From a virus, in IMG/VR virus record IMGVR_UViG_3300048909_000182: DNA of 26,724 bases; one strand, given 5' to 3'. Below the pieces are notes generated by a model. The model ran no database searches and had not been told where the DNA came from. It saw nothing but the letters and a program-made list of their open reading frames with translations. The position numbers and the translations under genes were made by a program. Position 1 is the first letter of the stretch; each line of letters starts with the position of its first letter. Of this stretch, positions 1-26,724 are shown one piece after another.

Positions 1-127
1 TGCGTCCCGTTTCGATCTCGAACCCAGGACACGGATACGCCGCCGCGTATGCGGCCAGCGCGCTTTCCAGTTCCCGCACCCGAGCTTCGAGAAGCTCAGT
101 CTCGTGCCTAGAACTGGGGTTCGAGGC
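1..127. repeat. terminal direct repeat, copy 1 (identical to 26598..26724); circular-closure overlap
   Basis: Read base by base: 1-127 equals 26598-26724 (127/127). An ORF cut by the window edge becomes a clean 204-nt ORF only when the ends are joined. Confidence 0.95.
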
Positions 128-142
128 AGACAGGCCGGTCAT
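1..142 (-). CDS. hypothetical 67-aa protein, 5' part (gene spans the circular junction and continues 26597 down to 26536)
   Basis: ATG at 142-140 overlaps the TGA of the upstream methyltransferase gene (ATGA). Hand translation gives MTGLSASNPSSRHETELLEARVRELESALAAYAAAYPCPGFEIETGR, then TSGCSGVGGDCPTCAARALR-stop across the junction (142+62 nt = 204 nt, in frame). Confidence 0.6.
   Translation of the reverse strand, partial: MTGLSASNPSSRHETELLEARVRELESALAAYAAAYPCPGFEIETGR
113..127 (+). repeat. 15-nt iterated element ACTGGGGTTCGAGGC, copy A (duplicated at 26710..26724 by the terminal overlap)
   Basis: Exact 15-mer. On the minus strand it is GCC TCG AAC CCC AGT = ASNPS, codons 6-10 of the junction-spanning ORF. 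Confidence 0.9.
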
Positions 143-570
143 GCGGGCACCTCGAGCAGCGACAGCTGCCGTGACCGTTCGTACCGCGACAGCAGAACAG
201 GGGTGTGGACGCCAGGGAACTCGCGGTACCAGACACGCGTGATTTGCGCCCAGGCGGCGCAGTACAGCCACGGCGCCATCAGGTAAGCAACCGGGGCAAC
301 CCTGAGCGCTTCACGGACGTAGTCGGCGACCTCTTCCTTGTGGCCGCTGTCCCACGGCGGGTCGGCGAACACCGCCCCGAACGAGTCACGCTCGAACGGC
401 AGCCCCGTCCAATCCGCCTGCACGTCGGCGGCCTCGTACTTGTCCAGGGTGATGTCGCCCCAGTCGGAGCGGCCAGCGCATACGTTCAGCAGGGGGCGTT
501 CGGGGACGTGCCACTTCACGAACGCGTCGATGCTGTCCGTCCAGGTGAACGCCTCCCGGTAGCGAGTCAC
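139..570 (-). CDS. small SAM-dependent DNA methyltransferase-like protein (DPPW motif; N6-adenine/N4-cytosine type)
   Basis: 143-aa ORF with GTG start at 570. Motif-I-like NVCAGRSDWGD is followed about 40 aa later by FADPPWD, the (D/N)PP(Y/F/W) catalytic motif IV. The stop overlaps the next start. Confidence 0.55.
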   Translation of the reverse strand: MTRYREAFTWTDSIDAFVKWHVPERPLLNVCAGRSDWGDITLDKYEAADVQADWTGLPFERDSFGAVFADPPWDSGHKEEVADYVREALRVAPVAYLMAPWLYCAAWAQITRVWYREFPGVHTPVLLSRYERSRQLSLLEVPA

Positions 571-610
571 GCGTTCCGCCTGTAATCGGGGTTCTGATCC
601 GCTAGGCCGG

Positions 611-1405
611 TCAATCGTCCTCGTCCTCGTTTTGGACGTCGAAGGGGATCGGCGGGTTCCATTCGGGCCGAGGGAAACCCTCGGTCTGCTTCAACCCGTA
701 TTTCTTGTCGGGTGATCGACCAGCTTCGTGGTCGTTCCGGGCCTTCACGAACTGCGCGAACTCGAGCTTGAGATCAGTCTTGATCTTGTTCTTCCGGCGC
801 TGGCGCCATAGCGAGCCCAGCATCCCCGCCGGCTTCGAAAGATCAGGCCCGTCGGTGACGAGGATCCGGGTGAACTCCTCGTCGTCAGCGATCAGGTTCA
901 CGAAGCTGAGTTGCTTCGGTGGCGCAACCAAGGACTCGCTCACCTTCGCGACATGGGCGACGAACGGGTAGCGCTCCATGAACACGGCCAAGTCGCCGTC
1001 CCTGGGGTTGCCCATGAACGACACTTGGCCGCGTTCCCACTGCCACGCGAGGGTCGCAACCGCGACGCTGTTCTTGTCGCGATAGCCTCGGATCGCCATC
1101 AGGTCGGCCAGGCTGCGGCCGCCGCCCCGGTCGATGACGTTGAAGTTCTCCGGTGGCGCGTCGAACGTGACAGCCAGCTGCCAGGGGATCCCGGTGTTGA
1201 CGATCGCTTGTAGACGGTGCTGCCCGTCTTGGACGCCGCCGTTGGTATCGAGCGCAATTCCTTGGTGTGTAAGTGCGGCCCGGCCTGCTTTCAGTTCTTG
1301 CTCGAAATACCGGATCCGCGCTTGTGACACCGGCCGGTTGTTGCCGTTTTGGTGCAGCCATCCAGCGGCGATCTGCGGGTCGACAGTGATGGTTTCAGTA
1401 CGCAC
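611..1405 (-). CDS. ParB/Srx N-terminal-domain protein (ParB-like nuclease domain protein)
   Basis: 264-aa ORF; GTG start at 1405 with GGAG 7 nt upstream. It carries NRPVSQARIRYFEQELKAG ... VQDGQHRLQAI (DGxHR box typical of ParB-like N-terminal domains). No ParA partner is seen. Confidence 0.7.
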   Translation of the reverse strand: MRTETITVDPQIAAGWLHQNGNNRPVSQARIRYFEQELKAGRAALTHQGIALDTNGGVQDGQHRLQAIVNTGIPWQLAVTFDAPPENFNVIDRGGGRSLADLMAIRGYRDKNSVAVATLAWQWERGQVSFMGNPRDGDLAVFMERYPFVAHVAKVSESLVAPPKQLSFVNLIADDEEFTRILVTDGPDLSKPAGMLGSLWRQRRKNKIKTDLKLEFAQFVKARNDHEAGRSPDKKYGLKQTEGFPRPEWNPPIPFDVQNEDEDD

Positions 1406-1440
1406 CTCTAATCTCCGATCCCGCGAGCACCATGTGTAGG

Positions 1441-1478
1441 CGCAAACGCCGGTGTGCTCGCATCACCCGGCGTTTGCG
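1441..1478. terminator. perfect 12-bp inverted repeat hairpin (CGCAAACGCCGG-14 nt-CCGGCGTTTGCG), putative factor-independent terminator/insulator between attP and the early operon
   Basis: Arms 1441-1452 and 1467-1478 are exact reverse complements. It sits in the non-coding gap between the integrase end and the ParB-like start. There is no U-tract (common in actinobacteria). Confidence 0.45.
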
Positions 1479-1529
1479 CTAAAAGCCTGCGATTAGCAGG
1501 GTTTTCTGACTTTGCGGCTTTATGCCTGA

Positions 1530-1557
1530 AACAGCGGTTCGAATCCGCTAGGCGCCT
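1530..1557 (+). other. tRNA 3'-end fragment; putative attP core
   Basis: 1533-1557 = AGCGG TTCGAAT CCGCT AGGCGCC T, i.e. T-stem, canonical T-loop, T-stem, 7-nt acceptor 3' strand, discriminator. Upstream sequence does not fold into an anticodon arm. It lies about 60 bp from the integrase stop in an AT-richer gap. Confidence 0.6.
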
Positions 1558-1619
1558 CTTTTCGCTCAACGAAGCGGGCTGCAGCGAACGCCTATATGCC
1601 GGTTTTAACATTCGCGTTT

Positions 1620-2766
1620 TCAATTGTTCTCTGTCCTGCGAACACGGGCGTACGCGTCGGCGGCCTCTTCCTTCCGCCTGCGCGACGAGTGCAGATAGAT
1701 CTCGGTCGTCTTCGTCGACTCATGGCCGAGGAGCTCCTTGACGGCGTAGATGTCGCCCTTGGTCGCGTCGAGGACGCCGGTCGCGAACGTGTGCCTGGTC
1801 ATGTGCGGCTTGCGGTATGTGACGCCGGCCGTGGTCGATCAGCCGCTTCCACCATTCATGGAAGGCGCGTTCGCTCATCGGTCTGTCCGGGTAGGACGCG
1901 GTCACCTGCCGTTCCCTGCTCTGGTAGGCGCCGGCGACGCGCATCGGGAACCAGACGTAGTCGTCGAGCTGCCAGTCGCGGGCCCAGCGGGGGATCGGCT
2001 CGAGCAGCGCTGATTCCCAGGCGAGCCAGAACGGGCCGCGGATCGGGATCTCGCGTTCCTTCTCGCCCTTGCCGCGGACGGTGACGACACGGTCGGCCGG
2101 GTTGATGTCGGCGACCCGCAGCCCGCGTGCCTCGCCCTTGCGCAGGCCGCAGTCGAGCAGCAGGATCGCCCGGGCGCGGTCACGGGCCGGGTCGTCCATC
2201 AGCCTGGAGGCGTTCACGATCGCGGCCTGCTCGCCCTCGCTGAAGGTTTTGTAGACGCGCCGCTGGTTCTGCCGCAGCAAGGTCGGCAGCAGCTCCATCG
2301 GGTTCTTCGCCGAGCGGTGGTCGAACTGGATCGACCAGCGCAGGAAGCCGTTCCAGTGCGACCGGTGCAGCTTCCAGCTGCCCTCCGGGATCGTGTCGAG
2401 GACGAGGATCAGATGTTCGACGTCGAGCTCGGCGACGCCGACGCCGGCGGGGATGTTGATCGCGAGCCGGGCCAGCGACCGCTCGATGCTGTCGAGCGTC
2501 TTCGGCATCGCTTTCGACTGGCGCTTCCAGCGCAGGTACGCCTGGATGGGCGGGCCGAGCCTCGTTTCGAGGTAGCGCATGTCACGCATGGGATCCGCCA
2601 GGATCGCCCGCGCCTGCGCCAGTGTGAGCAGCGCCACCTCGAGCGGTGCTGCCGTAAGATCGTTGCCGCATGGGAGCCGATTCCTCCTGTGCCATGCCCG
2701 GGCCGTTAGCGCGGCGCCGGGCTTTTTATCGTCCCAGGAGCGTACAGCAGCGATGCGGCCTGTCAT
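1620..2766 (-). pseudogene. int: tyrosine integrase, split by a 1-nt insertion (fragments 2766..~1830 and ~1829..1620)
   Basis: The long frame carries the first catalytic Arg region (LLLDCGLRKGEARGLRV) and ends in Arg/Pro-rich nonsense after WWKRLIDH. The adjacent frame reads GVTYRKPHMTRHTFATGVLDATKGDIYAVKELLGHESTKTTEIYLH (HxxR, H and Y catalytic residues). Removing one C of CC at 1829-1830 restores ...KRLIDHAGVTYRKPHMTRHTFAT. The ATG at 2766 overlaps the upstream stop (ATGA). Confidence 0.8.
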
Positions 2767-3014
2767 AGCTTGCGCCCCTCGCGCAGCCATAACGGCGACA
2801 CGTTCAGGACTCGGGCGAGCTCGAACAGTTGCTTGTCGCGTGGTGTGCGGCGGCCGGTCTCCCAGCTGCGGACGGCCCAGGTCGTCGAGCCGACCATCTC
2901 AGCGAGTTTTTCCTGGGTGATGCCGCGGTCGACGCGGAGGCTGCGGAGCCGTTCAGGGAATCCAGCCTCGTCGGTGTCGCGCATTTCGGCCACGCTTCCG
3001 GAGTTTCTCGCCAC
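2763..3014 (-). CDS. XRE/Cro-CI family helix-turn-helix regulator (83 aa), co-oriented with the integrase
   Basis: LRSLRVDRGITQEKLAEMVGSTTWAVRSWETGRRTPRDKQLFELARVLNVSPLWL is a complete XRE-type HTH domain. GTG start at 3014 (alternative ATG at 2984). The stop overlaps the int start. Confidence 0.8.
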   Translation of the reverse strand: MARNSGSVAEMRDTDEAGFPERLRSLRVDRGITQEKLAEMVGSTTWAVRSWETGRRTPRDKQLFELARVLNVSPLWLREGRKL

Positions 3015-3191
3015 TGGCCACCGTCTTTCTGTTCAGCCCGCAGGAGGGGTTTTACCGTCGCAGGCGGGTCTGTGGCAAGGCCACTGTGTGCTATTTGCGG
3101 GGTTCGGATTGATACGCAAAACCCCCGCGTAGCAACGCAGTAGCAAGTTGGTGCAGTAGGCTGTGGGTGAGCGTCGCGGAGACAATCGCCC
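3015..3191. promoter_or_regulatory. divergent intergenic switch region between the two XRE-type HTH genes
   Basis: 177-bp gap between divergently oriented regulators. It contains three GTAG-core direct repeats (GTAGCAA at 3129 and 3140, GTAGGCT at 3156), a TAGGCT -10-like hexamer (3157-3162), GGAGA 9 nt before the TTG start at 3192, and a GC hairpin GCGGGG..CCCCGC (3097-3128). Promoter and operator assignment is not resolved. Confidence 0.4.
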
Positions 3192-3687
3192 TTGTCTAAG
3201 AACACCCACACACTGACGCTCGCCGAACGCATCGACACCCTGATCGACGATCCCGAGGTCAACCCCGAACAGGTTGGTCAGCGGCTCCGACTCGCCCGCC
3301 GCCGCGCCGGGTTCAGCCAGCAAGAACTCGCAGACGCGCTCAACGTCGGCCGCCGCACGATCTACGAATGGGAAATCGGCGAACGGATCCCGAAGAAACA
3401 CCTGACCCGCATCTCCCAGGGTGCTGGCGGTCTCGCGGGCCAGGCTACTCACCGGCCGCGACGACTACTACGCCGAGCTGAGCGAGCTTCGCGAGATGCT
3501 GGCCAAATCCGAAGCCGAACTGGCCGAGCTGCGCCGACAGGTCAGGCTAATGAACGAAAGGAACGCTGATCTTGCGGAAGCCGTCGAATCGGGCTTTGGG
3601 GCTCTTCGTCAACTGGTCGAGGAACGGGTCGCAAGGCGAGAAGAGACGCGGTCGCGGCTCGGATCGCGTCCGCGTGCTCCCGAATAG
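3192..3687 (+). pseudogene. XRE-type HTH regulator with C-terminal coiled coil (CI/Cro-like), split by a 1-nt insertion at the GGG run 3419-3421
   Basis: Frame A (3192 onward) gives RLRLARRRAGFSQQELADALNVGRRTIYEWEIGERIPKKHLTRISQ, then a low-GC3 tail. The frame from 3421 gives VLAVSRARLLTGRDDYYAELSELREMLAKSEAELAELRRQV..., which completes the last HTH-domain helix and has high GC3. That frame is closed by TGA at 3403-3405, so the switch lies between 3406 and 3421. Deleting one G gives ...HLTRISQVLAVSRARLLTG. Confidence 0.7.
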
Positions 3688-3803
3688 CCTCGGTTGACTC
3701 AAAGAGTCGAAGCGTGGCGGCGTCTAACGGCATCGTGGCCTGCACGCCTGAAGTTAACAGATGGTATGCGAGGGGTCGCAAGGAACCGGTTGGGTGTCCG
3801 TCC

Positions 3804-3809
3804 TAGGGT
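3804..3809 (+). promoter_or_regulatory. -10-like hexamer TAGGGT placed 6 nt upstream of the GTG start at 3816 (possible leaderless transcript)
   Basis: Fits the TANNNT pattern. It has the same -10 / 6 nt / start-codon geometry as the RHH gene at 26067. There is no Shine-Dalgarno sequence between hexamer and start. Confidence 0.3.
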
Positions 3810-3815
3810 TCGAAC

Positions 3816-4052
3816 GTGGAAGGGAGAGGCAAGCAGCCGTCCGAGCGGACGATCGCCCGGCTGCGCCGTCTACTCGAGCAGAAGCAGCGGGCGGAGACCA
3901 GAACCGCCGAGGCAACCGACGCGTTGGCCCGCGCCGCCCGTGACGCCTGCGACAAAGAGGGCGCCTCCCGAGCCCAGATCGCGCAAGCCCTGGGGGTTGG
4001 CACGTCAACTGTCCAGGGCTGGGTGCAACGCGGCCGCCAGCTCGACAACTGA
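3816..4052 (+). CDS. small DNA-binding protein with C-terminal HTH (regulator or excisionase-like)
   Basis: 78-aa ORF, GTG start. C-terminus ASRAQIAQALGVGTSTVQGWVQRGR is a typical HTH; the N-terminal half is charged and helical. Confidence 0.6.
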   Translation: MEGRGKQPSERTIARLRRLLEQKQRAETRTAEATDALARAARDACDKEGASRAQIAQALGVGTSTVQGWVQRGRQLDN

Positions 4053-4061
4053 CGAATAGGG

Positions 4062-4103
4062 TCGGCCCGGCGCCGTACTTGGGACGCACGGCAGCCGGGC
4101 CGA
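4062..4103. terminator. long GC-rich hairpin (10 + 5 bp stem, 1-nt bulge, 11-nt loop) after the 3816..4052 gene
   Basis: TCGGCCCGGC GCCGT (4062-4076) pairs with ACGGC a GCCGGGCCGA (4088-4103). It starts 10 nt after the stop codon. Confidence 0.55.
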
Positions 4104-4193
4104 GACCGCCACCCTACACAGCCAGCGTCCCGGGCAGATTCCCCCGTTTGGGTCAGGTAAACCGACGGCGGTGCCGGTACCTTCGCCCGTGAA

Positions 4194-4212
4194 CCGCCCC
4201 GTATCGGGGCGG
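4194..4212. promoter_or_regulatory. perfect 8-bp stem / 3-nt loop hairpin (CCGCCCCG tat CGGGGCGG) just upstream of the RBS of the secreted-protein gene
   Basis: Exact inverted repeat. It ends 12 nt before the AAGGAG Shine-Dalgarno sequence that precedes ATG 4237. Confidence 0.4.
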
Positions 4213-4236
4213 GAACTTGGGACAAAGGAGAACGAA

Positions 4237-4641
4237 ATGAAACTGCGGCTACTGTCGGCCCTCGCCGTCCTGATAGGGGTGTTCGCGAGTTCGGCCAGCG
4301 CAGCGCCGGCACCAAAGCCTCTTGAAGCGTGGGCAAAAATCCGGGCTGTCTGGACGGCCCAGGCACACGCCCGCAACCAGACAATCGTCTGCAACACAGT
4401 GCGTGCTTTGAATGCGGAAGGCGATGGATACAACTATCGCCTTGACTGTTCGATCGTGGTGAAGGACCAAGAGGATCTGCGAGCGTTGGTCAGCGGGGAA
4501 TTCACTCTGCCAGCGTGGGGCAAGTGCAAGTACTACGTCACGCTTACCTACCGGGATCGACCTCAAGCACCTGCGGTGGGTACGGCTCTTGACGTGTGTA
4601 AGCCTGGTTGGCTCAAGAGGGTGCCTCAGCTGGTCGGCTAG
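4237..4641 (+). CDS. secreted small protein with Sec-type signal peptide and four cysteines (prophage moron candidate)
   Basis: ATG at 4237 preceded by AAGGAG. MKLRLLSALAVLIGVFASSASA|APAP is an n-h-c signal peptide with an ASA cleavage motif and no lipobox Cys. The mature part has 4 Cys. Sequence is visibly less G+C-rich than its neighbours. Confidence 0.7.
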   Translation: MKLRLLSALAVLIGVFASSASAAPAPKPLEAWAKIRAVWTAQAHARNQTIVCNTVRALNAEGDGYNYRLDCSIVVKDQEDLRALVSGEFTLPAWGKCKYYVTLTYRDRPQAPAVGTALDVCKPGWLKRVPQLVG

Positions 4642-4811
4642 TCGTCGGGGGGGTCTTCGTGGTCGTCGCGTTCGAGGAACACCCCGAACCTGACGCGGTG
4701 CGACCTGGGGTCGCGGGTCAGCCAGACGATCGCGACGAACCCGACAACCAGGATGATGACGACGGCCGCGACCAGGTCTTGCCATGTCAAGTCGACAACC
4801 CCGAGGTTCAC
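4638..4811 (-). CDS. holin-like single-TM protein
   Basis: GTG at 4811 overlaps the endolysin stop (GTGA). 57 aa: VNLGVVDLTWQDLVAAVVIILVVGFVAIVWLTRDPRSHRVRFGVFLERDDHEDPPDD, i.e. one hydrophobic helix and a charged C-terminus, immediately downstream of the lysin. Confidence 0.55.
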   Translation of the reverse strand: MNLGVVDLTWQDLVAAVVIILVVGFVAIVWLTRDPRSHRVRFGVFLERDDHEDPPDD

Positions 4812-10801: not shown

Positions 10802-12957
10802 TAGCGGGCTCCGCGGCGCGGCTGCGGCCTCGCCTTCGCCCGCTTCGTCAGCGCGTCCTCCAACTGCTCCGGGTTCTGCGCCGACGAGTTGAAGGTGCCG
10901 ATATGCACCGTCATCCCGCCTGCGCCGGCGAACGCCGCCGTCCTCGACGGCGGCAGCGTGCCCCCGCGGCCGATCCCGGCGACAGCGCCGATCAGGTTCC
11001 GTGTCTGCGCCAACGACAGGTTCAGCCCGAGGCCGGCAACGAACTTGGACGCGTCGACCGGCCGGAACTTCGCGAACTGATCGTCGCTTTTCTTGCGCAG
11101 GTTCGCGATCTCCTGCTGCCACCGGAACACCTGCTGCGCCTCCTCCAACGTGCGTTTCCCGGTCGACGCCTGTTTCTGCCAGTACCGCAACAGGACGTTG
11201 GCGGTCTTCAGGTCGTCGGCGACGGTTTTGGTTGCCTGGGCGCGTTCGAACGCGAACTCCATCCAGCCGACCTTCTCCTGCCTTGCCTGGTCTGCCGCCT
11301 GCTGAGCCGCCTGCGCCGCCTGCTCATGGACACCCTGGACGTCGAGTTGGTTCTGGATCAGCTTCAGCTGCAGCTCTTTCGTGTCGCCGTACTTCTGGAT
11401 CGCCTTCACGATCAACTGGCGTTGCAGCTCGAGCGCCGCCAAATCGTCGCTCAGCCGTTTCGTCAGTTGCGCCTGCAACATGGCGACGTCGGCGCCGCCG
11501 AGCAGGTTGTCCATCGCCTGCTGGCGTTTCTGCGCGACATCGGCGGCGATCTGCGCGTTCACCTGCAACACCTGGTCTTCCAAGTTGAGCTTGCGGGTGA
11601 TGTCGCCGGTGACGTTGATCCTTGCCTGCAGCTTGCTGACGATCGTCCGGTAGATCGCGATCTGTTTGTCGAGGTTCGTCGTCAAACCGGCCCGGAGTTG
11701 CAGCCGGCCGATCAGCGCGTCGAACATCCGGTTTTGCTGTGCGATCGACGGGCCGCCGGCGCCGATCACGATCCCGCCCGCGGTGGTCAGGTCGCCCGGC
11801 CCCGGTTTCGGCGTCCGCAGGCCTTCGGTGAGGGCGTTGAGCGCGGCGCCGGGCTGCATCGCCTGGATGGCTTTCTTTGCTGCGGCCGTCGGCGGCGTCG
11901 GCGGCGTCGGAAACAATTTCCCCAGCGCGGTGATCCCCTGGAACAGGGCGACTGGCAGCTGCGCGTCGGCCAGTCCTTTCAGCAGGTCACCGAACGAGAT
12001 AATCGACCCGGTTCGCTTCTGGGTCTCCTCGCCGAGCGTCTTGATCCCAACCCGGATGTCGTGCAGGCCGTCGGTGAAGTTCTTCATCTTCGTCGTCGAC
12101 GGCTTGCCGCCCGCCGCATCCATGAAGTCGTTCAGTTTGGTGGTGGCGGTGGTGACGGCCGGGATCAGCTTCTCGCCGATCTTCGTCGCGAGGTCGTCGA
12201 TGTTCGCGGTCAGGATCCGGGTTTGGTTCGCGAGTCCTTCTTGGGTGCGTTGGAAGTCGCCCTGTGGTTTCTGGGTGTCCTGGTAGATGATCTTGATCCG
12301 GGCGAGCAGCTTCTCCTCTTCGGTCAGCTGCGAAGCGTGTTTCTTGCCGGAGTCACGTAGCGCTTCCTGCTGCACCCTTGCCGCCGACAGCCGGACGCCG
12401 TACTCTCTGAGCGGCCGCACCTGGCCGACGAGGCCGGACTGGATCGCCTGAAGCGCCTGCGGCAGCGGGGTGTTCGAGAACGACGCCAGGTCGGCGCCCA
12501 ACTGGGTGAGGTTCTCGGACAGGTCGGCTGCCTGTTTGCCGCCGATCCCAACGGTTGAGAACAGGGCGCCGAATGTCGACGCCGTCTTCAACGCGTCGCG
12601 TTCCGAGATCCCGAACGCCTGGGTGGTTGTTTTCGACCATTCGATGACGCCCTGGCTGGCCTGGTCGAACACCCTGCGGGTCTTCGTTGTTTGTTCGTTC
12701 AGGTCGGACGCCGCGACAACGGACGCCTCGAGCCCCCGTTTCAGATCGTCGAAGACGCGGGCGGCGGTGATGCCGCCAAACACCCCTGTCGCGATCGACC
12801 TGCCCAATCCTCTGAACGCGACGGTGGCGGTCCCAGTGGCACGGCCGGTCTGTTCGATCCCCTTCGTCAGCCCGGCGGTCTGCTGCTGCGCCTGTTTGAT
12901 CTGGCGGCTGTAGGCGGCGGCGTCGAGGACGACCTCGACGATCAGCTTACGGGCCAC
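10801..12957 (-). CDS. tail tape measure protein
   Basis: 718 aa, GTG start. N-terminal region ...FGGITAARVFDDLKRGLEASVVAASDLNEQTTKTRRVF...GISERDALKTASTFGALFSTVGIGG...LGADLASFSN matches the conserved tape-measure core, followed by long helical/coiled sequence. It follows the G/G-T chaperones. Confidence 0.9.
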   Translation of the reverse strand: MARKLIVEVVLDAAAYSRQIKQAQQQTAGLTKGIEQTGRATGTATVAFRGLGRSIATGVFGGITAARVFDDLKRGLEASVVAASDLNEQTTKTRRVFDQASQGVIEWSKTTTQAFGISERDALKTASTFGALFSTVGIGGKQAADLSENLTQLGADLASFSNTPLPQALQAIQSGLVGQVRPLREYGVRLSAARVQQEALRDSGKKHASQLTEEEKLLARIKIIYQDTQKPQGDFQRTQEGLANQTRILTANIDDLATKIGEKLIPAVTTATTKLNDFMDAAGGKPSTTKMKNFTDGLHDIRVGIKTLGEETQKRTGSIISFGDLLKGLADAQLPVALFQGITALGKLFPTPPTPPTAAAKKAIQAMQPGAALNALTEGLRTPKPGPGDLTTAGGIVIGAGGPSIAQQNRMFDALIGRLQLRAGLTTNLDKQIAIYRTIVSKLQARINVTGDITRKLNLEDQVLQVNAQIAADVAQKRQQAMDNLLGGADVAMLQAQLTKRLSDDLAALELQRQLIVKAIQKYGDTKELQLKLIQNQLDVQGVHEQAAQAAQQAADQARQEKVGWMEFAFERAQATKTVADDLKTANVLLRYWQKQASTGKRTLEEAQQVFRWQQEIANLRKKSDDQFAKFRPVDASKFVAGLGLNLSLAQTRNLIGAVAGIGRGGTLPPSRTAAFAGAGGMTVHIGTFNSSAQNPEQLEDALTKRAKARPQPRRGAR

Positions 12958-17258: not shown

Positions 17259-18520
17259 TTCAGGACTCCTTGTGCGACGTCTGCCGGTGTCGAGTTGTCG
17301 AGCCGTTCGGCGGCGCGGATCTCGTCGACGGTGATCGCCCGCTGCCCCGTCACCGGGTCCTGCAACGCGAACAGGATCTGGTAGGCCTGCGCACGCGCCA
17401 GCGGTGGCGGCTGCACGAACTCGTCCCGGTTCAACTCCACCTTCGTACCCCTGGGCAGCAGCCAGCCGGACAGGGCGGACATCAACGTTTGCGCGGTTGC
17501 TTTCAGGCTGTCGCGCCACCAGAAGTCGAAGAAGTCGCCCATGTTCTTGTACGTCATCGACTCCCCCGACCCCGGCAACCCAACGATCTCCGGCGGGACA
17601 CCGAGGAGCTCCGCGATCCTGGAATCCTGGTACCGCTCCAGGTCGACGAGGCCGAGCTCGGTCGGGTTGATCTGCGACGGCTTCCACTGCAAGCCTTTGT
17701 CCAACACTGCGGGCTCGCCGATCGTCGACATCCGCCGGGCGACCCACGCCTGCTGAATCGCCAACGCCTGGTCGGGTGAGATCTCCTCCTGCGACTCCAA
17801 GACGCCGACGGGGACGCCACCTGAGGCGACGATCTTGGCGCCGTACTGCATCAACGCCTCCGCCGCGACCATCCGGTACGCGCCGGCCTCCAATGGGCCG
17901 TGGCCGTGCAGGTCGACGATGTTCCCCTGGTAACGGATGTGGAGCATGTCGGCGGTGACGTCGTCGCCGCCGATCTCATACCTGCGGAGGCCGTCGGTGC
18001 CGCGGTCGACGTTCACGTACAGCGGCGGCACCACGTGGAAACGCGACGGCCACCCGGTTGCGTAACGCGCCGTTGTGAGCAGGAACACCTCGCCGAGCAT
18101 GAAGTCCCACACCAAGCTCTTGCAGAACTCCTCCCAGGACACGTACAGGTCGGGGTCGGGGTTGTTCATCCAGTCCGCCGACAACGTGTCAGCCGCATCA
18201 ACGAGATACGGCGGCATCGTCGACAACGCCCGCGCGGTCTTGTCGACGCACAGCCAGGCGGTGTCGGTCAAACGTTGCAGCTGGTTCGACCAGTTCGGCG
18301 TGTTCCAGCCAGCCGGCCAACCCGACCAGCCCGACGCGACAATCCGCGGCGGCGGCCCCGCCGGCAAATCGGTGCCGTCGACGGTGACACCGTGCGGATC
18401 CCCTGGGGTGACGAGTTGGTCGGGCCCGACGGTTGATGGCGGCACGCTCGCGGGGTTGTTCGGGTTCGGGACGACGCCTTCGTCGCTCGCCGCGCGGGGT
18501 CTGAGGCCGCGGAGGTTCAT
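17255..18520 (-). CDS. portal protein, HK97 family
   Basis: 421 aa between the terminase and the protease. It shows typical portal sequence (…LTDTAWLCVDKTARALSTMPPYLV…WNNPDPD…). Confidence 0.9.
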   Translation of the reverse strand: MNLRGLRPRAASDEGVVPNPNNPASVPPSTVGPDQLVTPGDPHGVTVDGTDLPAGPPPRIVASGWSGWPAGWNTPNWSNQLQRLTDTAWLCVDKTARALSTMPPYLVDAADTLSADWMNNPDPDLYVSWEEFCKSLVWDFMLGEVFLLTTARYATGWPSRFHVVPPLYVNVDRGTDGLRRYEIGGDDVTADMLHIRYQGNIVDLHGHGPLEAGAYRMVAAEALMQYGAKIVASGGVPVGVLESQEEISPDQALAIQQAWVARRMSTIGEPAVLDKGLQWKPSQINPTELGLVDLERYQDSRIAELLGVPPEIVGLPGSGESMTYKNMGDFFDFWWRDSLKATAQTLMSALSGWLLPRGTKVELNRDEFVQPPPLARAQAYQILFALQDPVTGQRAITVDEIRAAERLDNSTPADVAQGVLK

Positions 18521-20256
18521 CAGTACACCGTCGGGACCCGTGACGGTTGGGCTGCTGCGTGGAGCGCCCAGACCATTGCTTTGACGAGATGCGTCGGCCC
18601 GGAAGGCTCGAGAGCGAGCCCTGCCGCGCGTTCACGCACCATCGCTACCGCCATCGCCTCGTCAAGGTCGGGGGTATCGTCATGAACAACCATACCGCCG
18701 CCCGCGAGATCCCGGAGCAGCGCGAGTCCGGCGCGGGTTTCGGTGCCGCCGACGGGTTTCGGCGGCGGCCACAACCCCGCCGGCAGAGACGCGAGCATCG
18801 ACCCGCCGACACCAACCAGCCTGACCCGCCGCGTCACCAGCAGCGTCTGCAGATCTCTGACGGCGGTGTCCCAGTTCGGGCACAGCCACCCGTCCACCTC
18901 GACGCGGCCGTCGTCGAGCTTCGCCGCCGCCGCGACTGCGGCGCCGGAGCCGAAGTCGTCCTCGACCATCACGAACAACGGCTCGTCGTGCGCCTCCAAC
19001 GGCTCCTGCAACCCCTTCCACAAACCCGCTGGCAACAGAGGTTCGCCGTCGCCGCCGCCTTCCATCGACCTGGGCCACTGGTTGAGCCACTGGGTGCGGA
19101 ACGAGATCTCCGGGTCGGGCTCCGTCGGATCCCTGATTTCGCCGGCCTGAATCGCCGCGAGCTGCTGCCCGACGAGGCGTTCGCGTTGCGGCGTCCAGTG
19201 CGGCGACGCCAAACGCCACGCATCCACGCTGTCGATCGGTAATTCGGGGGGCGCCGACCACTCGATCAGCAGATCACCGGCGCCGGTCTCGAGCTCGGCG
19301 AGCGCCGCCTTGCGGCGTTGCAGCATCAACGCCTCCGACCGCCTATGGGCCGTCGAGATCAGCAACAGCTGCGGCTGCGCCCGTTCGACCATCGTCGGCA
19401 CCAACGACTCGTCAACCGTCGCCGACGTCACTTTCCACGCCTCGTCGACGGCCGCCATCGACACGCTGTGCCCGTACGCAGCTTCTTTCGTCCTCAGCAT
19501 CCAACGCGAGTGATCAGGGAGATACTCCAACGCCTCCTGGCCGTTCACCTGCCGCTGCTTGTACGCATCACCTTGCTGCTTCGCCCACCACACAGCAGGC
19601 CGCTGCACCTCACGAACGACAGCAAGGTCTTTCCCGGTGTGGACGCAATCCTGCGGCTCCCCGAATCGAGCCGCCTGACGCATCCGCCACAACAAGAGCT
19701 CGCGTAGCAACCACGACTTCCCGACCTGACGGGCGACCGTCCACACCGCCGCGTCCCAGACCAATTCGCCGTTCGAATCGATCTCGAGCAGACGTGTCGC
19801 GACGAGACGCTGCCACCACCTGAGCGGCCGTCCCTCCCGCGCATCAGCCCAGGCGCAGAACTCGTCGCCCAACGAACCCGCCGCCCTTGGGTGCGGCACC
19901 GTCATGAACCTGGGCCAGACTGCCTCCGCCGGCACATCCAGCAGCCGCTCGAGCCATGGCACATCCCAACGACGATCCGAGAACGACAAACCGTCGCGCT
20001 CAGGCGGCAACTCAACGACGTTGCCCCGCAGCGTCTTCGCCGCACCCCGGTTACACACCTCATGTTCCGGCCCCGTATAGCCGCGCCGGTCGTCGGTGTG
20101 GCCCAGATCCCACTTCTGGCCAGGCACGATCCAGTCGCCACACCTAGCGCACCTGACACGCCCCGCTAGAACGAGCCGGTTGTACTCGGCCCGCATCCGG
20201 CGATGCCCGGTGCCATAACCCCGAGCAGCCGTCGATGCCCTGACCTTCGCCGGCAT
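18520..20256 (-). CDS. terL: HNH endonuclease domain fused to terminase large subunit
   Basis: 578-aa ORF from ATG 20256. The TTG at 20313 extends it, but those 19 codons have low GC3. aa 11-72, ARGYGTGHRRMR...RCARCGDWIVPGQKWDLGHTDDRRGYTGPEHEVCNRGA, is an actinophage-type HNH motif. aa ~125 onward, LGDEFCAWADA..PLRWWQR...VARQVGKSW (Walker A), is followed by the ATPase/nuclease body. There is no stop codon between the two parts. Confidence 0.8.
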   Translation of the reverse strand: MPAKVRASTAARGYGTGHRRMRAEYNRLVLAGRVRCARCGDWIVPGQKWDLGHTDDRRGYTGPEHEVCNRGAAKTLRGNVVELPPERDGLSFSDRRWDVPWLERLLDVPAEAVWPRFMTVPHPRAAGSLGDEFCAWADAREGRPLRWWQRLVATRLLEIDSNGELVWDAAVWTVARQVGKSWLLRELLLWRMRQAARFGEPQDCVHTGKDLAVVREVQRPAVWWAKQQGDAYKQRQVNGQEALEYLPDHSRWMLRTKEAAYGHSVSMAAVDEAWKVTSATVDESLVPTMVERAQPQLLLISTAHRRSEALMLQRRKAALAELETGAGDLLIEWSAPPELPIDSVDAWRLASPHWTPQRERLVGQQLAAIQAGEIRDPTEPDPEISFRTQWLNQWPRSMEGGGDGEPLLPAGLWKGLQEPLEAHDEPLFVMVEDDFGSGAAVAAAAKLDDGRVEVDGWLCPNWDTAVRDLQTLLVTRRVRLVGVGGSMLASLPAGLWPPPKPVGGTETRAGLALLRDLAGGGMVVHDDTPDLDEAMAVAMVRERAAGLALEPSGPTHLVKAMVWALHAAAQPSRVPTVY

Positions 20257-20326
20257 CAGACCAAAGAGGGTATTTCGCGACGAGGAACGGGGGTCAGAAG
20301 CCGTCGCACCCAAAAAACGGGGTGGG

Positions 20327-24786: not shown

Positions 24787-25329
24787 CTATCTGCACTGCC
24801 ATTCGTCGCGGCCATGCGCGAGCATCCAGCCGCCAGCGAGCGCGCTCGCGTAGGGCGAAAAGAGGCTGAACCTCGCGAACGGGGTCGTCGCCCAGGTCGA
24901 AGGAAGGAATTGCATCAACCCGCTTGCGCCGGACGGGTTTCGCGCGAGCGGGTTGAGCGTCGACTCGCATGATGCCTTGCGCCAGAGGTCGGCTTCGTGG
25001 CCGTAGACGGTGGCGGCAAGGTCCAGTGCCTCGCTGACGTCCGGACGGTGCACGAGGACGTAGCGCTGCCGGGCGAGCCGGCGTTGCAGCCGTTCGACGA
25101 TCTGGCGTTCTCGTCGGAACCTGAGCGCCCACCGTTCGGGGCCAAGGCCGTCGAACCGGATCTGGCCTTTGCCGATGACGCGGCGGTGGCCGTCGCCGAA
25201 GTGCGGCTCGAGGCCACGGAGCGCACTGCCGGCCAATGCTGCCGCGCGCGCCATCGCGACGATCACGAGCGCGAGCAGGGCGACGCAGAGCGCGATCGCG
25301 GTCCGGCGGCTCGCGGTGTGGGGACTCAT
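24787..25329 (-). CDS. membrane-anchored SLT-domain lytic transglycosylase
   Basis: ATG at 25329 (ATGA overlap with the upstream micro-ORF). N-terminal TM helix TAIALCVALLALVIVAMARAAALA. C-terminal ASCESTLNPLARNPSGASGLMQFLPSTW is the canonical SLT motif set (catalytic E-S, GLMQ, TW). Confidence 0.8.
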   Translation of the reverse strand: MSPHTASRRTAIALCVALLALVIVAMARAAALAGSALRGLEPHFGDGHRRVIGKGQIRFDGLGPERWALRFRRERQIVERLQRRLARQRYVLVHRPDVSEALDLAATVYGHEADLWRKASCESTLNPLARNPSGASGLMQFLPSTWATTPFARFSLFSPYASALAGGWMLAHGRDEWQCR

Positions 25330-25412
25330 CGGCGCCAGTCCCTGTCGGTGGACATGGCGCCGAAGACGAATCCGATCGCGACGCCGAGGAGGAAGAGGAG
25401 GGCAGCGGTCAT
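25326..25412 (-). CDS. 28-aa single-TM micro-protein
   Basis: Hand translation: MTAALLFLLGVAIGFVFGAMSTDRDWRR. ATGA overlaps with both flanking genes. Confidence 0.5.
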   Translation of the reverse strand: MTAALLFLLGVAIGFVFGAMSTDRDWRR

Positions 25413-25621
25413 AGCGCAACCGCCTGCTCGACCTCTTCGTCGTCGAGGTCGACGTCGCTGGCCTCGAGCTCCTCGACGCGCTCGAGCAGGAGCCTGGTCG
25501 CGAGCAGGGCGATGCAGGCGAGCTCGATCGTGGGCGGGTCGTGCCGGTCGACGGCCGCGCGCTCGACGTCGAGGAGCGCTTGCTCTGCGCGGACCGCGAG
25601 GCGTTTGAGGCCGGTCTTCAC
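25409..25621 (-). CDS. hypothetical helical acidic protein (70 aa)
   Basis: GTG start overlapping the upstream stop (GTGA). High GC3; no motif recognised. Confidence 0.55.
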   Translation of the reverse strand: MKTGLKRLAVRAEQALLDVERAAVDRHDPPTIELACIALLATRLLLERVEELEASDVDLDDEEVEQAVAL

Positions 25622-25941
25622 TCGCCGCCCTCGACCTCGGCGATGACTTCGACGGTGACACGGATCGACTGGCCTTCGAACTGTTCGAGGAAATCGCTGA
25701 GCGACCGCCCCGCCGGATGTAGCGTCAGGTCGGTTTCGCTGCCGTAGTGGCGGACGGTGAGCAGTCCCTCAAGCCGATTACTGGGGTTCGAGGCTGAAGG
25801 GGGTTTCGGCTCGTCGACCTTGACGCCGATCGCGGGGTTGCCGCCGGACTTCCAGCAGTCGGCGCACTCGTTGAACCACGGGTCGCGACACTGCGGGTAG
25901 CAGTACCGCCGTTTACTGGGGTTCGAGGCCGACAGGCTCAC
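25618..25941 (-). CDS. hypothetical 107-aa protein carrying two copies of the SASNPS-encoding element
   Basis: GTG at 25941 overlaps the upstream stop. MSLSASNPSKRRYCYPQCRDPWFNECADCW... (Cys-rich module), then PPSASNPSNRLEGLL... (second module). Confidence 0.6.
   Translation of the reverse strand: MSLSASNPSKRRYCYPQCRDPWFNECADCWKSGGNPAIGVKVDEPKPPSASNPSNRLEGLLTVRHYGSETDLTLHPAGRSLSDFLEQFEGQSIRVTVEVIAEVEGGE
25780..25794 (+). repeat. 15-nt iterated element, copy D (internal to the 107-aa ORF)
   Basis: Exact ACTGGGGTTCGAGGC; encodes ASNPS in frame. Confidence 0.9.
25915..25929 (+). repeat. 15-nt iterated element, copy C (codons 5-9 of the 107-aa ORF)
   Basis: Exact ACTGGGGTTCGAGGC followed by CGACAGGCTCAC (start codon GTG). 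Confidence 0.9.
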
Positions 25942-26498
25942 TCGCCCTCCCGTAGTGCGCTCAGAAGGTCAGCGATCTCCGCGAGGCGCGGCCAGTTCTT
26001 CGATGTCGCGTGAAAGCGCAGATAACTCTCGGCGAGGCGCATGTCACGGTGTGATACAATGTGCTCATGGCTAAGACAACGAAGGTTCCGGTCGGCGTCC
26101 TCATCGCTGAGCGCGACGCCGCGGTAAGCGTTCGGATGCCCGGACTGATCAGGGAACGTATGGAAGAGCAAGCGGCGCAAGAAGGCCGCAGCCTGTCGAG
26201 CATGGTTACGTTCGCGCTTTACCAGTGGTTGAACGAGCGCGGCTGAGTTGCCGACCACCGTCCACCAGGGTTCCCCGAGGACGTAGACGCGGACGATCTC
26301 GTCGCGCGTGTGGTTCGCCAGATGCCGTTCGAGCTTCGCCGTCGCAACCTTCATCGCGTCGGCTATCGGCCCGTCGAACTCCGCGCCGCAGATTCGGCAG
26401 CGACGAGCGACCGCTCGCGACGGCTTGCACGTCCGGCATGGACAGTCGGGGTTGTGCGACTGCGGTAGAACCTGTTTGAGGTCGTAGCCAGCCATCAC
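25938..26498 (-). CDS. hypothetical 186-aa ORF (N-terminal Cys-cluster module); its middle third is antisense to the RHH gene
   Basis: GTG-ATG start overlapping the mini-ORF stop. CPCRTC...CRIC cluster. By hand count, GC3 is about 82% in codons 1-84 and falls to about 63% over the 60 codons opposite the RHH gene. No in-frame stop occurs until 25938. Confidence 0.5.
   Translation of the reverse strand: MMAGYDLKQVLPQSHNPDCPCRTCKPSRAVARRCRICGAEFDGPIADAMKVATAKLERHLANHTRDEIVRVYVLGEPWWTVVGNSAALVQPLVKRERNHARQAAAFLRRLLFHTFPDQSGHPNAYRGVALSDEDADRNLRCLSHEHIVSHRDMRLAESYLRFHATSKNWPRLAEIADLLSALREGE
26052..26060 (+). promoter_or_regulatory. extended -10 promoter element TGaTACAAT, 6 nt upstream of ATG 26067 (leaderless-type)
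   Basis: TG at 26052-26053 and TACAAT at 26055-26060, with no Shine-Dalgarno sequence before the ATG. The surrounding 60 bp are about 53% G+C by hand count, well below the neighbours. Confidence 0.5.
26067..26246 (+). CDS. ribbon-helix-helix (CopG/Arc/MetJ-type) DNA-binding protein, 59 aa, nested antisense in the early operon
   Basis: MAKTTKVPVGVLIAERDAAVSVRMPGLIRERMEEQAAQEGRSLSSMVTFALYQWLNERG = beta-strand (VSVRMP), helix A (GLIRERMEEQAAQEG), RS-turn, helix B (LSSMVTFALYQWL). It has its own promoter-like element. GC3 is 44/60 by hand count. Confidence 0.65.
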   Translation: MAKTTKVPVGVLIAERDAAVSVRMPGLIRERMEEQAAQEGRSLSSMVTFALYQWLNERG

Positions 26499-26539
26499 GT
26501 CTTCGGCCTATAACTGGGGTTCGAGGCTGGCAGGCTCAT
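26495..26539 (-). CDS. 14-codon mini-ORF MSLPASNPSYRPKT carrying copy B of the iterated element
   Basis: The ATG overlaps the upstream stop (ATGA) and its TGA overlaps the downstream GTG (GTGA). Whether it is translated is unknown. Confidence 0.35.
   Translation of the reverse strand: MSLPASNPSYRPKT
26513..26527 (+). repeat. 15-nt iterated element, copy B
   Basis: Exact ACTGGGGTTCGAGGC followed by TGGCAGGCTCAT (start codon ATG). Confidence 0.9.
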
Positions 26540-26724
26540 CTCAGCGCCCTTGCGGCACACGTCGGGCAATCACCACCGACGCCGGAGCAACCAGACGTGC
26601 GTCCCGTTTCGATCTCGAACCCAGGACACGGATACGCCGCCGCGTATGCGGCCAGCGCGCTTTCCAGTTCCCGCACCCGAGCTTCGAGAAGCTCAGTCTC
26701 GTGCCTAGAACTGGGGTTCGAGGC
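26536..26724 (-). CDS. same junction-spanning hypothetical gene, 3' part as seen at the right window edge (lacks the first 5 codons)
   Basis: In-frame continuation of the ORF above. The stop TGA at 26538-26536 overlaps the ATG of the next mini-ORF (ATGA). Confidence 0.6.
   Translation of the reverse strand, partial: ASNPSSRHETELLEARVRELESALAAYAAAYPCPGFEIETGRTSGCSGVGGDCPTCAARALR
26598..26724. repeat. terminal direct repeat, copy 2 (identical to 1..127)
   Basis: Same comparison as copy 1. Unique genome length is therefore 26,597 bp. Confidence 0.95.

Follow-up and report, generated by a model that had tools for sequence, protein, structure and literature searches.

What does a short sequence do that recurs, letter for letter and in the same reading frame, at the starts of consecutive small genes in a phage genome? 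The question is raised by the virus record IMGVR_UViG_3300048909_000182 (IMG/VR), a stretch of 26,724 nucleotides (nt) that we call the window. It is a circular assembly of 26,597 bp with a 127-nt terminal duplication and a GC content of 66.5%, from a small temperate siphovirus-like phage with nearly all of its genes on the minus strand. The 15-mer ACTGGGGTTCGAGGC occurs exactly at positions 113-127 (copy A), 26513-26527 (copy B), 25915-25929 (copy C) and 25780-25794 (copy D), always on one strand and in one reading frame, and a match at 26710-26724 repeats copy A through the terminal duplication. None of 100 dinucleotide shuffles reached this count. A sequence search thus confirmed what an earlier inspection of the letters (the sequence-only reading) had described as four copies in one orientation, spaced by 135, 598 and 197 bp. 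As set out below, the element is real, non-random and widespread, apparently has not been described before, and probably is the invariant core of a portable gene junction of about 34 nt whose copies recombine.

Read on the minus strand, each of the four copies gives GCC TCG AAC CCC AGT in the frame of an open reading frame (ORF), as had been noticed, and the GC content at third codon positions (GC3) backs the coding frames that contain them. Junction A (106-142, minus strand; ATGACCGGCCTGTCT, then GCCTCGAACCCCAGT at 113-127, then TCTAGGC) has its core 15 nt after an ATG at 140-142, which overlaps the TGA at 139-141 of a 143-aa gene. Junction B (26495-26539, minus strand) is a mini-ORF of 14 codons, MSLPASNPSYRPKT and a stop, with the 15-mer 12 nt after its ATG; this ATG overlaps the TGA of cassette A (the cassettes are the gene units that lie between junctions), and its own TGA overlaps the GTG of a 186-aa ORF. 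Junction C (25908-25941, minus strand; GTGAGCCTGTCG, the 15-mer, then AAACGGC) follows at 12 nt a GTG that overlaps the TGA of the 186-aa ORF. The placement of three copies shortly after ATGA or GTGA overlaps, proposed in the sequence-only reading, is therefore correct, while its count of 23 identical positions out of 27 between B and C, taken from the start codon, should be 24. Junction D (25773-25806, minus strand) has no start codon and is an in-frame fusion inside a 107-aa ORF.

No further exact copies exist, as had been stated, although two degenerate ones had been overlooked. One is a fifth junction at 567-614 (minus strand), a mini-ORF (TTGACCGGCCTAGCG GATCAGAACCCCGAT TACAGGCGGAACGCGTGA) between a 264-aa gene and the 143-aa gene, whose TTG overlaps the stop of the former and whose TGA overlaps the GTG of the latter. 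The other, termed e0 (1524-1557, minus strand), is a junction paralogue that resembles the core of a phage attachment site (attP) and lies just after the integrase gene. The array in the window thus runs e0, 264-aa, 143-aa, A, 186, C, D and 70-aa. Near copies at 12725 and 25200 differ in frame or strand and were taken as chance. The 70-aa gene starts with a sequence, GTGAAGACCGGCCTGAAGCGCCTCGCGG (25589-25621), that resembles a decayed junction (ACCGGCCTG...GCCTCG), and in contig L082 (contigs are designated here by L numbers) the same gene has an intact mini-ORF junction before it. The weak inverted partial copy reported at 17-28 (CTCGAACCCAGG, plus strand) is present as well; it falls within cassette A, some 90 nt downstream from the junction, and could pair with a junction core in the mRNA.

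The extent of the element became apparent from a comparison of copies in other contigs. The 15-mer is the core of a junction of about 34 nt made up of an xTGA stop/start overlap, 4-5 leader codons, GCCTnnCnG, TCGAACCCCAGT, nnn and MGGC, with the consensus RTGAGCCTnnCnGnnTCGAACCCCAGTnnnMGGC. Counted from the T of TCGA, the conserved stretch extends from about -15 to about +18 and takes in the start/stop overlap. In the close family the fixed parts are GCCT, C, G, the invariant TCGAACCCCAG, T and, after a free codon, MGG followed by C or T. In distant phages GCCTnnCGGA and AAYCCCAGT are kept and the central 4 nt fall into the recurrent classes TCGA, CAGA, GGTA and CCTA. Fixation is as strong at third codon positions (CCC; the rare codon AGT) as at the first two, so the constraint acts on nucleotides. 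The sequence-only reading had drawn the same conclusion from its finding that every synonymous position is identical; the nucleotide-level constraint holds, but family-wide there are rare synonymous variants, AAT for AAC and AGC for AGT, with CCC and AGT otherwise fixed.

In total, 113 distinct junction copies with full context were collected from about 45 metagenomic or viral contigs. A metagenome scan with the 15-mer followed by NNNMGG returned 70 loci, about 25 of them true relatives, which carry the left flank RTGAGCCTGTCN or ATGACCGGCCTAGNN and unrelated sequence to the right of the junction. A looser scan of IMG/VR added 16 viral contigs of 17-48 kb, and fetching the contigs around integrase relatives gave whole arrays, such as the nine junctions within 2.3 kb of L112. 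By contrast with these loci, the 19 single matches of the exact 15-mer in IMG/VR have unrelated flanks and were judged to be at chance level. No deposited phage genome was found to carry the junction at BLAST sensitivity. When two 37-39 nt junction consensuses were compared with the phage collection, one gave nothing and the other gave chance-level matches (E 2-7), four in 23S rRNA.

Across these copies the arrangement is uniform in orientation, frame and stop/start overlap. Orientation is the same within each locus (81 of 81 copies at 24 loci), and an in-frame start lies within 6 codons in 61 of 75 unique contexts. Of these 61 starts, 53 are exactly 12 or 15 nt away and 45 form xTGA overlaps. 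More than 40 unrelated bodies follow the junction, among them a bona fide MT-A70 enzyme with its DPPW motif directly after the leader. The pattern search proposed with the sequence-only reading, over relatives of this genome, thus did find copies at ORF starts ahead of different modules. A junction may be translated as part of the downstream protein, may stand as a mini-ORF of 14-15 codons whose TGA overlaps the GTG of the next gene, or may conclude the upstream protein. Copies and half-copies are absent from the structural genes and from the cI-cro intergenic region (2985-3191).

Natural variants show that the sequence on either side of the junction is exchanged. In L022, a contig from another study that is 99.8% identical to the window, the left flank of A is followed by the 15-mer and the right flank of B, which amounts to a precise loss of the 197-bp cassette A (an A-to-B deletion). 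The cluster-member proteins P0002 and P0003 begin with M/VSLSASNPS and continue into the A body, i.e. the left flank of C is joined to the right flank of A, and the same joint occurs in contigs L037, L058 and L114. Within its 1,950 bp, the single contig L114 reads e0-X1-X2-X3-186-A-N-C-(SRRKT-stop)-next gene, where X1 to X3 are unrelated to the cassettes of the window, N is a new cassette and the following gene differs too. L037 encodes an integrase with 74% DNA and 61% protein identity to that of the window, yet its cassettes 186, A and C are 99.7%, 98.9% and 98.8% identical, stand in a different order, and the stretches shared with the window start and stop in junctions. The 186 cassette is likewise 99.7% identical in L114. 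In all 15 informative pairs (10 with the same body and a different upstream sequence, 5 with the same upstream sequence and a different body) identity switches between -16 and +13 of the junction. Exchange joints therefore lie in the junction, and cassettes about 99% identical are shared, in varying order, across diverged phage backbones. Such natural recombinants with joints inside the element speak for one suggestion of the sequence-only reading, that the copies are boundaries which promote the shuffling of ORF modules.

The same comparison explains junction D. In L058, L064 and L114 this junction is followed instead by SRRKT, a stop and a new gene, so bodies C and D are separate cassettes that have become fused in frame in the window. 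The proposal that the internal fourth copy divides the 107-aa ORF (25618-25941, minus strand) into two modules is borne out by these relatives.

We considered whether the variants might be assembly chimeras and rejected this. The longest exact repeat, 15-16 nt, is far under the assembly k (31 for the Logan contigs; 127 as suggested by the 127-nt overlap of the window), and the alternative orders are found on single contigs from independent projects (L114, L037, L058). The Logan contigs L022, L023 and L026 end at the final base of a copy, L025 ends 15 nt beyond one, and the window itself begins at a junction copy. Since a 15-nt repeat cannot break a contig at k = 31, ends at copies would be graph branches from mixed neighbours, which suggests that different cassette neighbours coexist within those samples.

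We propose that each junction is a portable unit. On the coding strand it would consist of an upstream stop overlapping a restart codon (xTGA), 4-5 leader codons, GCCTnnCnG, a variable centre, AAYCCCAGT, one free codon, an Arg codon (MGG) and a C. A cassette would run from within one junction to within the following one, comprising the right half of the former, a gene body and the left half of the latter, so that the start codon and first codons of each ORF come from the upstream cassette. Junction copies would recombine within a genome and between co-occurring phages, resulting in deletion, insertion or reordering of small early genes, with translation presumably coupled across the stop/start overlap. 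As every junction has the same orientation, the same frame and its own stop and restart, any new neighbours would still be coupled and the products of exchange should be viable.

As for the mechanism, exchange might be guided by the shared 15-34 nt, through homologous recombination of phage or host or through template switching during replication. We favour such homology-guided exchange while giving it slightly less than an even chance, because junctions persist in L093 next to an integrase that is just 30% identical, occur apart from any integrase in L074, and in the window accompany an integrase that is frameshifted before its catalytic Tyr; moreover, junctions of the exact 15-mer type have diverged from the T loop of attP, and the exchange in L052 fell outside this loop. 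Several points weigh against it. The genome has no recognised recombinase of the RecT, Erf or RecE type, and homologous recombination would normally call for more than 15-16 nt of unbroken identity. Nor would homology by itself lead one to expect conserved blocks on both sides of a variable 4-nt centre with recurrent classes (TCGA, CAGA, GGTA), a two-block pattern that looks more like recognition by a protein. Finally, contig ends are the only sign of possible ongoing exchange within a population.

A possible source of the junction lies next to the integrase gene. The plus strand at 1531-1557 reads AC AGCGG TTCGAAT CCGCT AGGCGCC T, a perfect T arm, acceptor 3' strand and U73 of a tRNA. This 27-mer of e0 is identical in L037, L108, L109, L112 and L114, directly downstream of integrases that are 57-61% identical, and the wider 34-nt e0 template scores 29-33 of 34 in L113, L118, L125 and L133. 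In L111, a bacterial contig of 739 kb, a related integrase abuts a tRNA-Cys(GCA) gene whose 5' acceptor strand nearly matches. On the strength of the T arm and acceptor match, the identity across phages and the position of the L111 integrase at tRNA-Cys, we take e0 as a candidate attP core of the tRNA-Cys 3'-end type; the tRNA-Cys of the host would then be predicted to end in AGCGGTTCGAATCCGCTAGGCGCCT. The 3' acceptor strand of the tRNA-Cys at 7055-7126 of L111 fails to pair with its 5' strand, consistent with a tRNA 3' end supplied by a phage and a crossover in or near the T arm. In L033, positions 8-34 hold a different sequence resembling a tRNA 3' end (reverse complement TGGGGGCGGGAGGATTCGAACCTCCGT, with CCA), followed by an array with the same junctions; this phage may combine a different attP with the same cassette system.

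The GAT-type junction consensus equals e0 at 29 of 34 positions by hand count, including seven tRNA-Cys-specific bases outside the universal T loop, from which we infer that the junction element may descend from the attP core of the phage. Its right half, TCGAA-CCCCAGTAAACGGC(GG), matches a conserved segment of 23S rRNA (GATCGAAGCCCC(A/G)GTAAACGGCGG) in the sense orientation. The local alignment score is 17-19 versus a null maximum of 11 +/- 1.3 for a target of rRNA-operon size, about 5 standard deviations above it, while e0 scores 7 against this segment, i.e. no match. The junction thus looks like a hybrid of an attP left side and an att-core-like rRNA-gene sequence; the 23S match may stem from integration at a secondary site, from mimicry or from coincidence. 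On the coding strand, TCGAA-CCCCAGTAAACGGCGG (25905-25926 of the window; also in L134) is near-identical to the 23S segment 5' of helix 69 (TCGAAGCCCCAGTAAACGGCGG). To the right of e0, about 40 nt (1491-1530, TTCAGGCATAAAGCCGCAAAGTCAGAAAACCCTGCTAAT) are 86-92% conserved in L037, L052, L093 and L114, in one of these phages even with an integrase of 30% identity, and in L052 and L093 this stretch is joined to junction-type left halves that bear a start codon. Possible interpretations of the stretch are an attP arm, a promoter and a small RNA.

These relationships raise the first of the alternatives to homology-guided exchange, in which the Xer-like integrase would see the junctions as attP- or attB-like cores, with a variable overlap between two conserved half-sites, excise circles and reinsert them at junctions or at attP. 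The phage would then possess an integron-like capture mechanism using in-frame, attP-core-like sites of about 30 nt in the first codons of genes and moving single-gene circles, and the progenitor site might be a hybrid of attP and a pseudo-attB, with a tRNA-Cys-type attP on its left and a 23S-identical sequence on its right. We hold both the integrase activity and the capture system built on it to be possible, though on balance improbable. In keeping with this idea, the paralogy of junction and attP core includes the acceptor and T-stem bases of tRNA-Cys, and the array starts right after the integrase and attP, in the orientation of attP, in the window, L112, L114, L125 and L133. The orders A-186 and 186-A are circular permutations, as expected from excision and re-entry via the other copy; conserved blocks around a 4-nt centre of recurrent classes suit the core site of a tyrosine recombinase; and the phage-derived part of the L111 tRNA-Cys diverges right after the T arm, placing a crossover in or near the T loop.

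Other observations fit this alternative less well. Junctions are present in L093 despite its distant integrase, lie downstream of the SLT gene and away from any integrase in L074, and are the same in L033 despite what seems to be another tRNA-like core. At the exact 15-mer type, 2 of the 7 T-loop positions differ from attP and the symmetry of the T stem is lost, and in L052 a junction core followed by the attP right flank places the exchange outside the T loop. The reciprocal hybrid of attP left and junction right, which insertion at attP by the integrase predicts, was not found in L093. In the window the Xer-like tyrosine integrase gene (1620-2790, minus strand) is frameshifted near 1830 by one extra G (CCACGGCCGG, compared with CCACGCCGG in L022, where the integrase is intact with 381 aa), leaving the region of the catalytic Tyr in a separate 60-aa ORF. 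Among five spanning Logan samples the frameshift is present in L020, L021, L023 and L025 but not in L022, and four JGI contigs carry it as well; its recurrence across samples points to a pseudogene or a programmed frameshift rather than a one-off error. With integron-integrase profiles the protein scores far under the cut-offs (TIGR02249, 55 bits versus 265; NF011946, 42 versus 435), and its best matches are XerC/D-like, all below their own cut-offs.

A second alternative, which we consider unlikely, is that the element acts in gene expression, as an enhancer of re-initiation on the mRNA, an operator for a repressor or a DNA site, and that exchange is a by-product of shared sequence and selection for working junctions. 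An mRNA operator just 3' of the AUG had been among the three unranked suggestions of the sequence-only reading. The position of the element at a fixed 12 or 15 nt from start codons, with the stop/start overlap built in, would fit such a role, as would conservation that is position-specific and extends to rare codons (AGT and codons ending in A/T, in a genome of 66.5% GC). Predicted accessibility is higher for the core than for the flanking sequence, and the match to 23S rRNA is to the sense strand. Directly after CCCAG, 48 of 75 copies carry a TAA or TAG in the third frame, so upstream translation is halted in both other frames. A precedent exists in the start-associated sequences of Cluster K phages (PMC3203893). 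Against this role, no conserved RNA structure or covariation is seen: RNAalifold finds no pairs across 64 copies, the mean z-score of the minimum free energy is 0.09, and the only symmetry in the junction is the 4-nt outer GCCT/AGGC. Neither promoter-like sites in 1-4700 or 25300-26724 nor a terminator-like site at any junction were found. No candidate binder is conserved across arrays, the cI-cro control region is without a copy, and the fused internal and mini-ORF copies indicate that the element need not begin a functional protein.

Selection for a peptide, an N-terminal tag L-x-[AD]-S-N-P-S-x-R, is very improbable. The element is always translated in one frame, and the codons for Leu (CTG/CTA/CTT), Asp (GAT/GAC) and Arg (CGG/AGG) do vary synonymously, but TCG, CCC and AGT are essentially invariant in about 45 unique flanks and further copies despite the high-GC codon options, and homologues keeping SNPS with freely varying codons were not seen among them. 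In addition, the element often sits in a 14-codon mini-ORF or in the C-terminus of the upstream protein, and the non-coding attP copy has the same sequence. Least plausible of all, and rejected, is the idea put forward in the sequence-only reading of an operator, iteron or centromere (parS) array for a nested ribbon-helix-helix (RHH) protein or the 264-aa "ParB-like" protein: the RHH gene is real by Pfam and RHH proteins are able to bind direct repeats, yet the arrays of other phages have no RHH or 264-aa homologue in the stretches examined by tblastn, the RHH gene occurring only with its own 186-aa cassette, so that the co-occurrence with a binding protein expected of a parS or iteron array is missing, both genes sit inside element-bounded cassettes, no ParB domain is detectable, and a DNA operator needs neither a fixed frame nor a fixed distance from the start.

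In line with the view of the sequence-only reading that the arrangement matches no described system, literature searches gave no description of it. Several known systems share parts of it. The closest functional analogue is the group of promoter-early stem-loops (PeSLs) of T4-type phages, intergenic elements in which a sigma-70 promoter is combined with a terminator hairpin (Arbiol et al. 2010, PMC2839356; PMC4122927). Recombination between PeSLs inserts, deletes and replaces genes between close relatives and can form mini-circles (PMC2839356; PMC4122927). Both systems have short repeats that flank small non-essential ORFs in hyperplastic early regions and recombine with each other, and shuffling between copies is found here in the L022 deletion, the L114 permutation and the 15 joints out of 15. 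Unlike a PeSL, the junction lies inside coding sequence, 12-15 nt past the start, has no promoter, terminator or consensus hairpin, is related to attP, and is predicted to act, if at all, via translational coupling.

In position, the closest analogue is the start-associated sequence (SAS/ESAS) of Cluster K phages, GGGATAGGAGCCC, a 13-bp repeat with AGGAG in it that precedes the start codon by 3-7 bp (Pope et al. 2011, PMC3203893). Like it, the junction is an asymmetric, single-orientation repeat at the starts of non-structural genes of different families within one phage group, as the uniform orientation of all 81 copies and the more than 40 bodies illustrate. It differs in being downstream of the start and translated, in having neither AGGAG nor any shared sequence, and in its documented recombination joints.

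Integrons consist of the integrase IntI, the site attI and arrays of attC sites, imperfect palindromes that fold as hairpins. The likeness includes a tyrosine recombinase with a primary site, promoterless single-gene cassettes in the same orientation, a cassette boundary inside the site and a variable order, and the layout with the array beside the integrase and primary site is seen in the window, L112, L114, L125 and L133, though not in L074 or L093. The sites here, however, are non-palindromic, about 34 nt long, without a predicted hairpin and inside ORFs, and the integrase is not of the IntI type; it is transcribed in the same direction as the array, and some arrays lack it. Stoperators are asymmetric sites of about 13-15 bp found genome-wide at gene junctions in one orientation and equal to the operator of the repressor. 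The junction shares with them a short asymmetric sequence at gene junctions in one orientation relative to transcription; a stoperator reading was nevertheless rejected, as no copy lies in the cI-cro region and all copies are in the early region that holds the cassettes. PMC3203893 mentions the stoperators of Cluster A mycobacteriophages.

Phage mosaicism has been viewed in two ways, as exchange at conserved linkers or as illegitimate recombination followed by selection. For lambdoid phages, boundary or linker proposals hold that homologous recombination at short conserved sequences between genes joins unrelated modules, and according to PMC3029335, which cites these proposals, such sequences are untraceable at most mosaic joints. 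The junction is comparable in that it is common to phages with integrases 30-100% identical and mosaic joints coincide with it. It differs in that one element marks arrays of consecutive genes, at 113 sites in about 45 contigs, in frame and with a stop/start overlap. To our knowledge it is the clearest instance of the conserved-boundary-sequence model. Linkers have been hard to find at real joints, whereas here a junction of about 34 nt marks early-gene arrays in an uncultured family of small soil phages. Since diverged backbones share near-identical cassettes that are joined within this junction, the linker model becomes directly testable on a genome of 26.6 kb. The arrangement would amount to a natural plug-and-play rule, in which the frame never changes and each cassette hands a stop, a restart codon and a leader to the one after it. 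As many cassettes encode small Cys-rich proteins, they also form a catalogue of exchangeable early genes of that kind and others. The element would be a kind of recombination-mediating junction or regulatory cassette, with a credible chance of a site-specific capture system; if the adjacent integrase does act on attP-like sites, a virus would possess gene capture resembling that of integrons.

The cassettes of the window carry diverse genes. Cassette A encodes a 67-aa ORF that crosses the circular junction, with its 5' part at 1-142 and its 3' part at 26536-26597 (both minus strand). The ORF of the 186-aa cassette (25938-26498, minus strand) moves as a unit with the RHH gene nested antisense inside it (26061-26246, plus strand), which matches Pfam RHH_5 with 28.9 bits versus a cut-off of 26; the RHH protein is a passenger of the cassette and not the binder of the junction element. 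GC3 of the minus-strand 186-aa frame weakens across the RHH stretch 26061-26246. In L037, identity is 99.7% for the DNA of this cassette and 100% for each of the two proteins. The 143-aa gene (139-570, minus strand) has a DPPW motif, is weakly methyltransferase-like and is itself a cassette, present in L088 with 93% DNA identity and a different junction type upstream. The 264-aa gene (611-1405, minus strand) is the first cassette after e0. Tblastn found no homologue of it in other array-bearing loci, its sole match is a PHROG of unknown function, and the "ParB-like" label given to it earlier gained no support from Pfam, NCBIfam or PDB sequence searches.

Besides its block of small early genes, the genome encodes cI-like and cro-like proteins, the tyrosine integrase, an SLT-domain protein, a primase, an HNH-terminase, portal, protease, capsid, tape measure and tail proteins. 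No tRNA or known RNA was found in the window by ARAGORN or by Rfam at gathering thresholds, and a permissive Rfam scan of 1380-1720 gave chance-level matches only. A megablast query of 25 kb matched nothing among 50,697 phage records and 72,556 plasmids, and in IMG/VR no locus was obtained when the 186-aa and 143-aa proteins served as seeds. Many samples (Logan, JGI) do contain contigs identical to the window, and a genome scan for TCGAACCCCAGTAAACGG returned 5 matches, 1 of them plausible, a 2.5-kb contig in an Acidimicrobiales metagenome-assembled genome. The large-terminase ORF (18520-20313) has an N-terminal match to an HNH endonuclease at residues 24-94. Among the cassette ORFs, A and C of the window and those of L033, L034, L052, L063, L079, L084 include many proteins of 35-70 aa with paired CxxC motifs resembling zinc ribbons, which hints at small early products with host factors or nucleic acids as binding partners.

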